A stretch of DNA of 64,000 bases. It comes from a virus. The position numbers were made by a program, and so were the translations under genes. This document shows positions 31,427-61,707 of the stretch, piece by piece. Location: the IMG/VR virus record IMGVR_UViG_3300022907_000005, positions 32,484 through 96,483 of that record, one strand, 5' to 3'. Position 1 is the stretch's first letter, and every line of letters starts with the position of its first letter. The notes under the pieces are model-generated. The model had not been told where the DNA came from and ran no database searches. It worked only from the letters and a program-made list of their open reading frames with translations.

Positions 31427-32758
31427 TTATGCGATTCGTAGGAACAGTTTCTTAGACTCTTGTGTTGAGGATGTCGCCTGAACAGTGGCACCTACATAAG
31501 TGCCAGTGAAACTTTGCGAGTAGGTGCCCGCGTATGCTTGGTTATATGTTCCAGCATAGGCACCTGAATATGCAGCAGTATATGATCCGGTAAATGCACC
31601 GGTATATGATCCCGAATATGTTCCAGCATATGCACCCGAAAAGTTCTGACTATAGCTACCAGAGTATGTACCGGCATAAGCACCAGCATAGGTGCCTGCA
31701 TATGCACCAGTGAAATACCCGCCGACTGATCCCCCGTAGAATAGAGTGTACGCACCAGAATATGAACCAGTGTAGTAGCCAGTATAATAGCCTGTGTACG
31801 AACCAGTAAAGTATCCAGTATACGCACCGGTATAATAACCAGTATACGCGCCTGTAAATCCTTGTGAATAGGTTCCTGCATATGCTCGGTTATATGTTCC
31901 AATATATGAGCCTGTGTATGCAGCAGTATACGAGCCAGTGAAAGCGCCGGTGTATCCACCAGTGTAAGTTACATCAGTTATAGTTTTTAATTGGTCTGTA
32001 AGAGTCTCACCTTTCTGCTGCCAAGTTCCTGTACCTGGAGCGGAAGATACTACTTCATAAGTACCAATATTATTTGAAATAATCCTATTTCTAAATCTAT
32101 TTGTCAATGATTGTAGTTCAGCATCAGTTGCCTCTACTACACCATCATCAGCAAATTTAATAAGAGTTCTGTTTGTTGCGGATGAGGGCACTGTTGTTGC
32201 AGCGGTCTTTTGCCAAAGATACTTTGTTACAGTTGTTCCATCTGTTTGAGTATCATCAACTTGCCCACGATTTACCCATGTGCCCCCTGCAGGAGCCGTT
32301 GCCGCTAACCAATATTGTCCAGCAGTATTCGCATCATCGGTTATCATTGCATCGATTAGTTCATCTATAATCTCTGAGTCGATCTCACTGTCCGTAGACT
32401 CTGCTACCTCACCGTTACTGTTTATTCTAAGCGGTGTGAATGTTTTATTGTCTGTAGCAGTACTATCGTTTTGACCAAAAGTATATACTTCTGTAGTTGT
32501 TGTGCCTACTGCTGGGTGATCTCCTACATTCTCTACTCTGACCCTATTAGTAAATGTGCCAATACTAGAAAAATTCGTAGTTAGAGATCCGTCTGCTGAA
32601 GTCACTTCAATTGAACCGACACCAGCAGTTCCTGCAAATGCAGTCGTGATTATATTTGCGGTATAATCTTTTAGTTCGGACGCAGATAGCTCTTGTAATC
32701 CTTCGATAGTATCACCTGAAGTGATATCCGCTGTCTTTATTTTTAAGGGACCAGCCAT
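31427..32758 (-). CDS. Virion fibre-like protein with 40 tandem (Y/F)-(T/S/A)-G-x repeats
   Basis: Located in the tail operon; the N-terminal part has three recurring modules, and a 160-aa repeat is inserted in the last one. Confidence 0.7.
   Translation of the reverse strand: MAGPLKIKTADITSGDTIEGLQELSASELKDYTANIITTAFAGTAGVGSIEVTSADGSLTTNFSSIGTFTNRVRVENVGDHPAVGTTTTEVYTFGQNDSTATDNKTFTPLRINSNGEVAESTDSEIDSEIIDELIDAMITDDANTAGQYWLAATAPAGGTWVNRGQVDDTQTDGTTVTKYLWQKTAATTVPSSATNRTLIKFADDGVVEATDAELQSLTNRFRNRIISNNIGTYEVVSSAPGTGTWQQKGETLTDQLKTITDVTYTGGYTGAFTGSYTAAYTGSYIGTYNRAYAGTYSQGFTGAYTGYYTGAYTGYFTGSYTGYYTGYYTGSYSGAYTLFYGGSVGGYFTGAYAGTYAGAYAGTYSGSYSQNFSGAYAGTYSGSYTGAFTGSYTAAYSGAYAGTYNQAYAGTYSQSFTGTYVGATVQATSSTQESKKLFLRIA
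31487..31966 (-). repeat. Coding 12-nt tandem repeat array of 40 units
   Basis: Runs from YTGG YTGA FTGS to FTGT YVGA in unbroken 4-residue register; includes an approximately 36-aa internal duplication. Confidence 0.9.
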
Positions 32759-59017: not shown

Positions 59018-59599
59018 TTATTTATAATGCCCACAAACAGCGAATTTTAGTTCTTCGCTGATTTGGACAAATGGACGATACTTCTTGATCAACATGTTGG
59101 TGTCTTCTAAGAAGATATCATCAGCCTCTATAGTAACATAATTGTAGAGTTTGTCAAGTGCTACAATCGTTTCTAAAGAAATCATTTTACCAAAATACAA
59201 TCTGTACACTAGAGGATGTCTCCCTGCGTGTGCATCAAAAGGAGAAGTCAATTCTTCTTTCTCCATTTCATAATCTATCTTGGCGATGTCTTGTTTAAAA
59301 CTGTACGCAAAGTTTTGTCGCACAGCCTTCCATTCTAAATATCGTTCCTTTGATTGCAAGTCAAACATTCCGCCCCAGCGATCACCGGATACAAAGTTAG
59401 CAACAAGAAAATCAATTGCTTCTTTGCGGCTGTAGTCTCTAGCGATCTTACGAATTGCAGTCAAGTCTTTTCGCTTCATAAAAGATTTTTGACTAGCTCT
59501 AACAGCACCCTTTGTTTTAGTGATGTCGTAATCCTTCTTTGTGAAGTGCAGTTTGAGTGCTAGGTAGAGTTTATATACTTCAAACGGTTCCATAATCAA
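59018..59599 (-). CDS. gp59: Helicase loader gp59
   Basis: YKLYLALKLHFT..YD, ISLET and KKYRPF motifs; lies between gp33 and gp32. Confidence 0.9.
   Translation of the reverse strand: MIMEPFEVYKLYLALKLHFTKKDYDITKTKGAVRASQKSFMKRKDLTAIRKIARDYSRKEAIDFLVANFVSGDRWGGMFDLQSKERYLEWKAVRQNFAYSFKQDIAKIDYEMEKEELTSPFDAHAGRHPLVYRLYFGKMISLETIVALDKLYNYVTIEADDIFLEDTNMLIKKYRPFVQISEELKFAVCGHYK
59019..59026 (-). promoter_or_regulatory. T4 late promoter upstream of gp32
   Basis: TATAAATA overlapping the gp59 stop codon. Confidence 0.75.
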
Positions 59600-59910
59600 A
59601 AGGGTAGCTTGCCTGTTTTCTCTTTCATAAGATTTAGAGTTTCCGCTTCTTCTTTAACTTTTTCTTTAAGAGAAGGGGTCAAAAGTTTTCGGACAGATTC
59701 AATTTCTATCTCTTGTCTCTGGCAATAATCAACTAAACAATCAATCAATGGATTTTTAGTGTTGTATGCTTGTTTTTCAATGTACTGAGAAAATTCAACC
59801 TGTGTTTTGAATTGCTTAGTTATTAAAAATACGTCAGTCATTTTTGATGTATCGGTCATGTCATTGTCTACTATAAGTTTAAGTTTATGCATTACTGTCT
59901 TACCTTCCAT
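59596..59910 (-). CDS. gp33: Late transcription coactivator gp33
   Basis: FSQYIE...DYC...IEIESV...LKEKVKEEAETLNLMK...LPF pattern; the true start may be downstream. Confidence 0.88.
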   Translation of the reverse strand: MEGKTVMHKLKLIVDNDMTDTSKMTDVFLITKQFKTQVEFSQYIEKQAYNTKNPLIDCLVDYCQRQEIEIESVRKLLTPSLKEKVKEEAETLNLMKEKTGKLPF

Positions 59911-60746
59911 TCGTGTATGTATTCGATCACATCAAATTCAGCTTTGATGTAAGGTAGCTCGCATTTAGTTTTTTCTACTTCACCTTTTCTATCAAATTCA
60001 AAAACAAATGGGTGCCCAAATGCCTCTGCTATTTCTAAAATTGTCTTAGGATCTCCTGCACCTAAATGAACCCAAGGAGGACGTTTTCCGTCGTGTGTTA
60101 GCAATAACTTTACGATGCCAGTAACAACATCAGTAACATAGGTAAAGTCTCTTTCTTTTCTACCATTGCCGTATATGTGTAGAGGTTCACCTTTTTTAAT
60201 TTGATTTTTGAATGCACGGACAACAGTGCTATGTTCACCGTAGTCAGCTTCTCTGGGACCGTAGACGTTGTAAAAATACAACAGATGCGATTGCACCTGA
60301 TACAATTTTTTGTACAGCCTCAGTGTTTCTTCCGCGAGAGTCTTACCGAACGTATAAGGATTTGCATACGGCGTACCTTGCAATCTACTAGATGACTGCG
60401 CAAAAAACACAGGGCACTCCCAATGTCTCGCCCATTCACATACTGATACTGTAGGACCCACATTATTCATAATAGAATCTGCTGGTTCTTGCATTGACAG
60501 CCTGACTCTAGGCGTATTCGCTAAGTGTATGATGCCATCAACTTGAGGAGTAGTCTCTTCAAACTTCACATCCTGAACTGCGCAATGAAGGTATTGCACA
60601 TAATTACTCTGTACAATATGTTCACCGTTTCGCTTATCGTCTACAACTGTGACATAACATTCCATTGCTGCAAGTGCTTCAACTAAATGCGAGCCTATAA
60701 AACCACATCCACCTGTAACGATGTAATGTGTCATGTTAAAAGCCAT
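59892..60746 (-). CDS. NAD-dependent nucleotide-sugar epimerase/dehydratase
   Basis: VTGGCGFIGSHL, PYTFGK (YxxxK), FYNVYGP and RDFTYVTD motifs. Confidence 0.92.
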   Translation of the reverse strand: MAFNMTHYIVTGGCGFIGSHLVEALAAMECYVTVVDDKRNGEHIVQSNYVQYLHCAVQDVKFEETTPQVDGIIHLANTPRVRLSMQEPADSIMNNVGPTVSVCEWARHWECPVFFAQSSSRLQGTPYANPYTFGKTLAEETLRLYKKLYQVQSHLLYFYNVYGPREADYGEHSTVVRAFKNQIKKGEPLHIYGNGRKERDFTYVTDVVTGIVKLLLTHDGKRPPWVHLGAGDPKTILEIAEAFGHPFVFEFDRKGEVEKTKCELPYIKAEFDVIEYIHEWKVRQ

Positions 60747-60748
60747 AA

Positions 60749-61306
60749 TTAACGCCTATAAAATATATGATTGTCTGCAACCATTACCATCTCCATACTG
60801 TCTTTCCAGTAAGGCTCTACATACTTAGCATGATAAAACAGAGATCCTTCTGTAGTATCAATGCCTGCATTATACACTATTTCAGCAACATCGAACACCT
60901 TTTTGTATACAGACTGGTCGGCTACAAAATCTGGTTTGCCATCACAATACCAACTAAATTGACATTTGTTTCTCAGTGGAACTTTCTTACCATGCGCCTC
61001 TTCCCACCATTTAGAATACTGTGCTTGATAAACAACCTCGCACACTGTATTCGGAAACCTAGATGATTTCACCCTGTTCAAGGTAACACTAGCAACAGCA
61101 ACCTGTCCAGTGATTGTCTCTCCTCTAGCCTCATGATATATGTTGAGTGCTAGGCAAACTACTTCGGGGTTTATTGGAGTGGGTACAATGTATGTCGCCT
61201 TGGTTGCAATTGGAACTGGAGACAATTCTTTTCGAGGATCTACTTTTTCGCCTTGACAAGAAAAGCACCCGAGCAGTATGATAAAAATCATAAGACCTGT
61301 ACGCAT
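60749..61306 (-). CDS. SleB/Hydrolase_2 cell-wall hydrolase with an N-terminal signal
   Basis: CLALNIYHEARGE, VTLNRV, CQFSWYCDG, FYHA.YV.P.W and HIFY motifs; hydrophobic N-terminus containing LLGC. Confidence 0.9.
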   Translation of the reverse strand: MRTGLMIFIILLGCFSCQGEKVDPRKELSPVPIATKATYIVPTPINPEVVCLALNIYHEARGETITGQVAVASVTLNRVKSSRFPNTVCEVVYQAQYSKWWEEAHGKKVPLRNKCQFSWYCDGKPDFVADQSVYKKVFDVAEIVYNAGIDTTEGSLFYHAKYVEPYWKDSMEMVMVADNHIFYRR

Positions 61307-61338
61307 TAGATTGCTCCTTTAACGTAAGAAATTGGGTT

Positions 61339-61670
61339 GCCTCTCCTTTTGGTAACAAGGCGAGAGACTCTCCCCGCTAACTTATGCAGCTAGTTGATAA
61401 ACGTCATCGTTTGCGTTTAGATTGTTTGCTTCTCAGTTTTACAGCCTTCTGCCTTGGCTGGCTCTCCACGCATCTACTACACCCTGTCGAAACCTGACTC
61501 CCCCATCAAAAACAAACTGCCTGCGGTATCTGCCTCCGCGTAACCACGCGTTCGTGGTAACTTAGTCTTTTCGTAGCTTTGCCACTTCTAGTTCAAGACA
61601 GTTTGCTTTTGGTGGAGGAGGGGGGAATCGAACCCCCGTCCAGTATGCCATCAAATTGCTTCATCAAGCT
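61339..61670 (-). ncRNA. ssrA: Circularly permuted (two-piece) tmRNA
   Basis: The acceptor piece ends GGACGGGGGTTCGATTCCCCCCTCCTCCACCA at 61610. It is followed by a 105-nt intervening segment. The coding piece starts GGGGGAGTCAGGTTTCGAC at 61504. The 7-bp acceptor stem has G3:U70, and the tag ANDDVYQLAA* is at 61414-61382. Outer ends are approximate. Confidence 0.93.
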
Positions 61671-61673
61671 ATG

Positions 61674-61707
61674 TATTTATAATACGATATACGGAGCGGT
61701 TAGTCAA
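61674..61707 (-). promoter_or_regulatory. Overlapping sigma70 and T4 late promoters for the tmRNA
   Basis: TTGACT (61707-61702), N17, TATTAT (61684-61679); TATAAATA at 61681-61674. Confidence 0.75.

Follow-up and report, generated by a model that had tools for sequence, protein, structure and literature searches.

The 64,000-nucleotide (nt) stretch of viral DNA analysed here (the window; positions 32,484 to 96,483 of the IMG/VR virus record IMGVR_UViG_3300022907_000005) carries on its minus strand a gene which, with high confidence, is a functional, phage-borne, circularly permuted two-piece transfer-messenger RNA (tmRNA) gene of the betaproteobacterial-type (beta-type) lineage. Its identity, lineage and architecture, its phage context and selection on its structure and tag are shown here, and it probably functions as a tmRNA, judging by its conservation among related phage genes. 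Between its two pieces lies a structured spacer which, when related phages are compared, appears to recombine independently of the tmRNA around it.

Identification and layout of the gene

Run over the whole window, ARAGORN called one gene only, a permuted tmRNA carrying the tag ANDDVYQLAA. Infernal matched it to the Rfam model RF04321 (tmRNA_permuted) over the full length of the model (positions 1-213; 98.9 bits, E 5e-18, gathering cut-off 47) and to RF01850 (beta_tmRNA) from end to end (positions 1-331; 90.9 bits, E 4e-26, gathering cut-off 84), scores that are well outside chance. A first-pass annotation, made from the letters of this DNA only, had read a permuted tmRNA here and proposed these programs as a check, and the ARAGORN call and the two models over their cut-offs bear that reading out. 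The order is permuted in that the T-arm, 3' acceptor strand and CCA end lie upstream of the 5' acceptor strand, with which they form a 7-base-pair (bp) stem. The T-arm and CCA end (61610) ahead of the 5' acceptor strand (61504), the stem, its G3:U70 pair and A73 all lie on the minus strand where the first-pass annotation had put them, and the pseudoknot pk1, GCA resume codon, tag ANDDVYQLAA followed by TAA, and post-tag pseudoknot that it described were found likewise, ARAGORN calling the same tag. The parts of the gene are as follows.

61672-61610, minus strand: acceptor piece of about 63 nt, with the 5' strands of helices P2c, P2b and P2a, the T-arm, CTCCTCC and the ACCA end at 61610
61637-61621, minus strand: T-arm, GGGGG (61637-61633), TTCGATT (61632-61626) and CCCCC (61625-61621), read from the sequence
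61620-61614, minus strand: 3' acceptor strand CTCCTCC, read from the sequence
61613-61610, minus strand: encoded ACCA with the A73 discriminator, read from the sequence
61609-61505, minus strand: intervening segment (spacer) of 105 nt between the acceptor piece and the coding piece
61504-61339, minus strand: coding piece, with GGGGGAG, GGTTTCGAC, the 3' strands of P2a to P2c, pk1, the tag frame and the post-tag pseudoknot
61504-61498, minus strand: 5' acceptor strand GGGGGAG, read from the sequence, forming the 7-bp stem and G3:U70 pair with CTCCTCC and followed directly by GGTTTCGAC
61460-61434, minus strand: pk1, read from the sequence, stem 1 CAGCC (61460-61456) with GGCTG (61446-61442), and a tentative stem 2 of the loop bases CAG (61451-61449) with CTG (61436-61434)
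61414-61382, minus strand: tag reading frame GCA AAC GAT GAC GTT TAT CAA CTA GCT GCA TAA, resume codon GCA at 61414-61412 and stop TAA at 61384-61382
61375-61339, minus strand: post-tag H-type pseudoknot, GGGG (61375-61372) with CCTT (61360-61357) and GTCTCTC (61368-61362) with GAGAGGC (61345-61339)

With the charged alanine the tag becomes AANDDVYQLAA, an 11-residue peptide that begins A-A-N-D (positions 1-4), has Y at position 7 and ends in LAA. The post-tag pseudoknot loop, CCTTGTTACCAAAA, is a motif of the beta lineage. The models for the other permuted lineages gave partial matches only, to the tRNA-like core: RF01849 (alpha) reached 31.4 bits against a cut-off of 50 over positions 82-176, and RF01851 (cyano) 30.3 bits against a cut-off of 70 over positions 51-126. 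The beta alignment takes in the lineage-specific post-tag loop GCCTTGTTACCAAA and also the promoter region of the model. When nine related viral contigs were scanned with Rfam, beta_tmRNA was the listed clan match in every one at 64-97 bits, five lying above the cut-off of 84 and four below it.

Conservation of the structure and of the tag

Selection was examined on a family alignment of 38 distinct phage genes, with pairs counted on the structure read from the window (individual loci are given L numbers below). The G:U at 3:70 was kept in all 38 genes. The acceptor stem had 97.7% of its cells paired with compensatory changes at pair 6:67, the T-arm 100% with compensatory changes in three pairs, and P2a and P2c 85% and 94% respectively with many double changes in each. 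The covariation score of 0.304 compares with 0.135 for shuffled alignments (none of 500 reaching 0.304) and with 0.06-0.13 when the pairing partners were slid. P2b and pk1 are mosaic and shift register on the family alignment, making them poor ground for pairing counts; in the columns of pk1 stem 1, a region mosaic among relatives, 53% of the family cells were paired. In the post-tag pseudoknot, the GGGG:CCTT stem of L019 has C-G in place of a G-C pair, a compensatory change, and L007 and L011 have GGCTCTC/GAGAGCC in the second stem. Among five distinct sequences coding for ANDDVY[QS]LAA, six of the seven variable codons change only synonymously. These patterns argue that selection acts on the gene as an RNA and also as a template, and as G3:U70 is kept, the helices covary and the changes in the tag are mostly synonymous, it is probably functional.

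The phage and the locus

The source record, of 96,483 bases, is estimated to be 58% complete. Neighbouring genes include those for the T4-type core proteins gp32 (single-strand-binding protein), gp59 (helicase loader) and gp33 (late-transcription coactivator), and further neighbours encode baseplate hub, tube and cap proteins. The gp32 is 52-56% identical to gp32 of cyanomyophages, of the OM43 phage Melnitz and of pelagimyophages. From these core neighbours and gp32 identities we assign the phage as an uncultured marine T4-like myovirus, and the T4-like carrier that had been proposed is thus upheld by the gp32, gp59, gp33 and baseplate genes of the record. The gene order in the window (59596-61707) is tmRNA, cell-wall hydrolase, epimerase, gp33, gp59, gp32 and that in Melnitz (MZ577097.1, 44500-49800; L267) is ssrA, gp33, gp59, further genes including thyX, then gp32, showing a tmRNA slot upstream of gp33-gp59-gp32 that is common to both phages. 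The gene is of beta type here and of alpha type in Melnitz, which suggests replacement at a fixed locus. Two features flank the tmRNA gene.

61707-61679, minus strand: sigma-70-type promoter-like site, TTGACT (61707-61702), a 17-nt gap and TATTAT (61684-61679), 10 of 12 matches
61319-60749, minus strand: downstream cell-wall hydrolase gene, AAGGAG Shine-Dalgarno sequence at 61319-61314, ATG at 61306, 185 amino acids, Pfam Hydrolase_2

The -35 hexamer of the promoter-like site overlaps the stop codon of the gene upstream, and the site is identical in the sister-phage locus L021; the Rfam beta_tmRNA model aligns its own promoter region there, and tmRNA transcription would start near 61672. No terminator-like site was found between 61339 and 61306, and the Shine-Dalgarno sequence and ATG of the hydrolase lie within 33 nt of the coding piece. 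It is probable that the tmRNA and the hydrolase are co-transcribed, with the tmRNA as the leader of an mRNA, and its 3' end would therefore be made by processing. Aligned to the beta model, the window gene lacks the terminal hairpin (positions 308-328); this hairpin is probably a bacterial terminator outside the functional RNA, and in the window a protein gene comes directly after. In many relatives, too, a gene starts 20-40 nt past the last tmRNA helix, and the downstream genes vary among the relatives with no conserved partner gene after the tmRNA. A very basic protein of 47-48 amino acids recurs just downstream of related tmRNAs (L002, L005, L006, L014, L020 and L022), 200-265 nt after G1 of the tmRNA, with the pattern M.(R/K)..(K/A)...HE.GPPKK(T/S)SSSG....MVK.SSMNK.K(K/R)RS(Y/F)KKYRGQGR. 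No SmpB domain was found in the whole 96-kilobase record, which extends the earlier remark that the window has no smpB.

Proposed role during infection

We propose that host RNA polymerase would transcribe the gene early from the sigma-70-like promoter, giving one precursor that spans the acceptor and coding pieces with the 105-nt spacer between them and that probably continues into the hydrolase gene. Host RNase P would cut 5' of G61504 and tRNA 3'-end enzymes would trim to the CCA at 61610, releasing the spacer hairpin, and the two pieces (about 63 nt and at least 166 nt) would be held together by the 7-bp acceptor stem and P2a to P2c. Host alanyl-tRNA synthetase (AlaRS) would charge the molecule through G3:U70 and A73, and host SmpB and EF-Tu would deliver it to stalled ribosomes, where translation would resume at GCA and append AANDDVYQLAA, an 11-residue degron sending tagged peptides to ClpXP-type proteases. 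The likely benefit to the phage would be extra ribosome-rescue capacity while host mRNA is being degraded by the phage. In this scheme the promoter, the processing sites, the use of host factors and the biological benefit are all inferred. The E. coli tag has the same layout (AAND..Y...LAA), and these positions bind SspB and ClpX; by analogy, this layout hints at a proteobacterial host.

Several points weigh against a working two-piece tmRNA of this kind. The P2b of the window pairs one base out of register relative to most relatives, pk1 stem 2 has 3 bp only, and the lack of both a terminal hairpin and a terminator after the coding piece leaves the 3' end of that piece undefined. The spacer stem in the precursor sequesters the CCA and the RNase P leader and could hinder processing. 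Expression, processing and charging are predicted, compatibility with the SmpB and AlaRS of whatever host the phage infects is assumed, and since the record is 58% complete a phage smpB may lie elsewhere in the genome.

A different role, in which the RNA mainly inhibits or redirects host trans-translation, either by titrating SmpB or through a tag that escapes or re-targets proteolysis, seems to us unlikely. A molecule with the tRNA-like domain only does inhibit tmRNA (PMC4131195), and SmpB titration has been proposed for an RNA of this kind in mycobacteriophage DS6A. The phage tag is also unlike any host tag retrieved, and the tmRNA type of Melnitz is unlike that of its host. However, the window gene retains a complete mRNA-like domain with pseudoknots, its tag frame is intact and kept by synonymous change, and the tag preserves the canonical AAND..Y and LAA positions, which in the E. 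coli tag are what SspB and ClpX recognise.

Relatives and origin of the gene

A 26-mer spanning the T-arm and acceptor strand was absent from 185,579 bacterial and archaeal species genomes (one genome per species) and present in 21 other viral contigs, all 21 of which carry permuted tmRNA genes. The search of phage genomes for the same permuted layout, suggested in the first-pass annotation, yielded 21 further viral contigs and at least 40 related phage genes. When the whole gene, its coding piece and its spacer were compared by BLASTN with 50,697 phage records, nothing meaningful came up. Over the two mature pieces, identity to the window gene was 98% for L021, about 70% for other phage genes, 41-44% for alpha-type phage genes and 56% for the best bacterial gene among 120 beta-type genes selected by pattern; the absence of the 26-mer argues against a near-identical bacterial gene, although a bacterial relative closer than 56% may exist. 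In a FastTree phylogeny of 152 sequences the bacterial genes fell inside a grade of phage genes, with a support of 0.37 near the window clade; this tree rests on an alignment of about 230 nt with skewed base composition, and no direction of transfer is drawn from it.

Two other origins for the gene have to be weighed. We think it very improbable that it is a recent capture of the host's tmRNA gene, carried as a passenger or left over at an integration site and serving the phage in no way. Many bacteria do have beta-type genes, and tmRNA genes are common integration sites with fragments in prophages (PMC9004378), but the 26-mer is in no bacterial species genome and the best bacterial identity is 56%, so that the near-identity to a bacterial permuted lineage which would have pointed to host capture was not found. 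Moreover, the gene is complete, dozens of viral contigs retain it, with covariation and with tag changes that are synonymous, and it sits among T4-like core genes at the same locus as the Melnitz tmRNA. On the sequences compared, it is not a recent host capture.

A fourth, independent tmRNA permutation within phages, with a convergent resemblance to the beta type, is just as improbable, even though identity between the phage genes and the best bacterial beta-type genes is only about 56%, the RF01850 scores of the phage genes (64-97 bits) are far below those of Rhodocyclaceae genes (165-313 bits) and the last hairpin of the model is lacking in the window gene, because the end-to-end beta match stands against partial alpha and cyano matches of about 30 bits, the post-tag loop motif GCCTTGTTACCAAA is common to the window gene and the beta type, and the junction spacer hairpin is shared, a mark of a single permutation event. 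The spacers of the 120 bacterial genes retrieved are mostly short 23-39-nt hairpins, AAGGGCAT...GTGyyTT, then GGT or GAT before G1, a form dominant in that set, which is chiefly Rhodocyclaceae and Gallionellaceae. In the phage genes, too, this stem closes the spacer (AAAGCACA...TGTGCTTT-TGAT), giving a consensus across phages and bacteria of AAGnGCAT...GTGnnTT, then GAT or GGT before G1. As this hairpin is shared at the junction, phage and bacterial beta-type genes go back to one permutation event, and an independent permutation is therefore unsupported; the suggestion in the first-pass annotation of a possibly independent permutation thus falls to the match over all 331 model positions and to the shared hairpin and loop motif. 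Its description of the acceptor piece as minimal holds in so far as the piece is short, about 63 nt, without pk3 or pk4, but this is the normal beta-type layout, to which the model aligns without large deletions there. The gene represents an old branch of a known lineage, one carried by phages, and is neither a fresh capture nor a new permutation.

Beta-type genes were also seen outside the Betaproteobacteria, in Stenotrophomonas (L058, L071, L087, L097), Acidobacteriaceae (L044, L074, L099) and Ktedonobacteraceae (L055), and one locus labelled as a Methanoregula metagenome-assembled genome (L076) groups with phage genes in the tree; a beta-type gene was present in 4 of 151 sampled genomes of one order. 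Such copies may be prophage-borne, horizontally acquired or misbinned.

Comparison with known two-piece tmRNAs

Phage-encoded two-piece tmRNAs are already known. The two-piece tmRNA of Melnitz, which lies behind an early promoter, has been described together with 53 tmRNAs that ARAGORN calls as permuted among 402 tmRNA-bearing phages, 50 of them aquatic, including HTVC008M, Mosig, several Synechococcus phages and Caulobacter phages (Buchholz 2022, PMC9004378). A 2025 tmRNA database holds 79 phage sequences and 11,946 permuted genes. The first-pass annotation had spoken of one-piece tmRNAs as known in some phages, implying that a two-piece form would be new; the gene is indeed a phage-encoded two-piece tmRNA, but such genes had been published for Melnitz, pelagimyophages, cyanophages and Caulobacter phages, and one is annotated in phage Marzo, so the window gene is a further member of a published pattern.

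Melnitz (on OM43), Mosig and HTVC008M (on SAR11) belong to the same phage group as the window phage, with gp32 proteins 52-55% identical to its own, and carry permuted genes, and Melnitz too has a long, stem-closed spacer, of about 140 nt. Their genes are of alpha type, however, with RF01849 scores of 106.7, 67.6 and 83.8 bits respectively, and Melnitz has a glutamine riboswitch after the coding piece rather than in the spacer, none being found in the window. Marzo (a cultured Stenotrophomonas phage of the genus Menderavirus, MZ326868.1) is likewise a large virulent phage with a permuted gene of beta type, annotated as 'tmRNA' and scoring 94.6 bits with RF01850 and 119 bits with RF04321. L213, which belongs to the wider phage family, has an acceptor piece about 82% identical to those of the Menderavirus group, and the spacer in that group is likewise expanded, to about 65 nt. 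Unlike the window gene, that of Marzo lies within a tRNA cluster and not upstream of gp33-gp59-gp32, in another phage lineage and habitat, and the two genes share no BLASTN similarity.

A betaproteobacterial two-piece tmRNA was reportedly described by Sharkady and Williams in 2004. Bacterial beta-type genes (RF01850; Rhodocyclaceae, Gallionellaceae and others) have the same piece order, helices, pk1, post-tag loop motif and junction hairpin as the window gene, at about 56% identity, but they have the terminal hairpin which the window gene lacks, and their spacers are 11-39 nt (120 genes, from a scan that admitted only about 9-39 nt) against 105 nt in the window. Among the bacterial beta-type genes (L023-L142), most of the Rhodocyclaceae type encode ACC followed by C or T in place of ACCA, and would therefore have the terminal A added after transcription, whereas the phage and Gallionellaceae genes encode the full CCA.

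The spacer as an exchangeable cassette

The spacer of the window (61609-61505) folds into a 16-bp closing stem around three hairpins at -40 kcal/mol (z = -5.8), and none of 200 shuffled sequences folded as well. The window is about 99% identical to L021 in the aligned flanks, in the promoter, in both pieces of the tmRNA and where the next gene begins, but the spacer is swapped at the same borders, ACCAA| and |TGATGGGGG, for an unrelated one, 105 nt in the window and 73 nt in L021. Across 43 phage genes of the family the spacer varies from 4 nt (CGAT) to 138 nt and is mostly closed by a covarying stem. Spacer and backbone vary independently, in that 22 gene pairs have backbones at least 95% identical with unrelated spacers and eight pairs have spacers at least 90% identical on backbones less than 85% identical. 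A 132-nt cassette in three metagenome contigs (L269, L270 and L271) is 95-97% identical on backbones that are 76-77% identical and encode different tags, and across these three backbones it keeps a compensatory G-C to A-U change (GCGGAG...CTTCCGC compared to GCAGAG...CTTCTGC). These comparisons indicate that the spacer is a cassette which recombines independently of the tmRNA. In the literature searched, spacer exchange was not found, and only two anecdotes came close, a tRNA-Ala and a repeat element inside spacers.

Two single spacers are worth recording for their contents. That of L258 (293-671) is 138 nt and carries a Shine-Dalgarno sequence and a hydrophobic reading frame of 41 codons (MENLILLVLIVVLNVYWVYSL...), the gene being otherwise 98% identical to that of L213, whose spacer is 59 nt. 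Within that of L174 (1541-1876), a T-arm-like stretch (GGGTTCGATTCCCACC) is similar to the T-arm of a different tmRNA variant and looks to have been left by recombination between tmRNA genes.

The rest of the gene is mosaic as well, with alternative pk1 modules in otherwise identical genes; for this reason recombination between co-infecting phages at conserved blocks is a sufficient mechanism, and the spacer may be merely the least constrained module.

The cassette in L021 (182-262), at the site equivalent to window 61505-61609, is one instance of a conserved, roughly 60-nt RNA whose core, GCGUCAGUAAGUC, is invariant. It was modelled with four helices and shows compensatory changes at nine P1 pairs and two P4 pairs, with 92% of cells paired compared to 28-46% for slid controls. 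Its loci are L021, L007, L008, L012, L015 and L272-L281, and it occurs in the spacers of beta-like tmRNA genes and of alpha-like ones (T-loops GGCGGTACC or GGCAGTACC), in a further permuted tmRNA type (L279 and L280), and outside tmRNA genes, directly after tRNA-Tyr in a phage cluster of 23 tRNAs (L281) and upstream of a tRNA cluster (L273). It had no match in Rfam. The window spacer was considered as a diverged copy of this RNA, but a covariance model built from the motif gave no match in the window at E up to 1.

The window cassette itself was found once more, in L143 with one substitution, with no further match in the phage records or the loci retrieved. It matched no Rfam family, and when the spacers were compared with known ribozymes and riboswitches (hammerhead, HDV-like, twister, pistol, hatchet, glutamine) no Rfam match appeared at E up to 5. 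Stable RNAs do arise from tRNA precursors, as with the species 1 and 2 RNAs of T4 and the 3' external transcribed spacer of E. coli leuZ, which is a sponge of small RNAs. Like these, the window spacer is structured, would be co-transcribed with tRNA-like genes and would be freed by RNase P and RNase E-type processing, but its excised 105-nt RNA is, unlike the T4 and leuZ RNAs, a predicted molecule. We consider it possible, if on balance doubtful, that the spacer is a cargo slot matured free by tRNA-processing enzymes and that the window cassette works as a passenger RNA, for example as a regulator, a sponge or an anti-defence decoy, rather than being junk.

Implications

As a tmRNA gene, the find changes little, since it extends a published pattern by one more uncultured marine T4-like phage. 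Phage beta-type genes form a deep and diverse set nested in no sampled bacterial group, and the lineage may have moved either way between phages and bacteria. Marine T4-like phages carry either an alpha-type gene, as in Melnitz, or a beta-type gene, as in the window, at the same locus, and tmRNA type is therefore not a simple host marker; it is a weak marker of host history, although the argument for a host switch in Melnitz drew on it. The exchangeable, structured spacer is the only unusual part of the locus and its most interesting lead: should the excised spacers prove to be working RNAs, two-piece tmRNA genes would serve as a platform for delivering small RNAs of phages and small genes.

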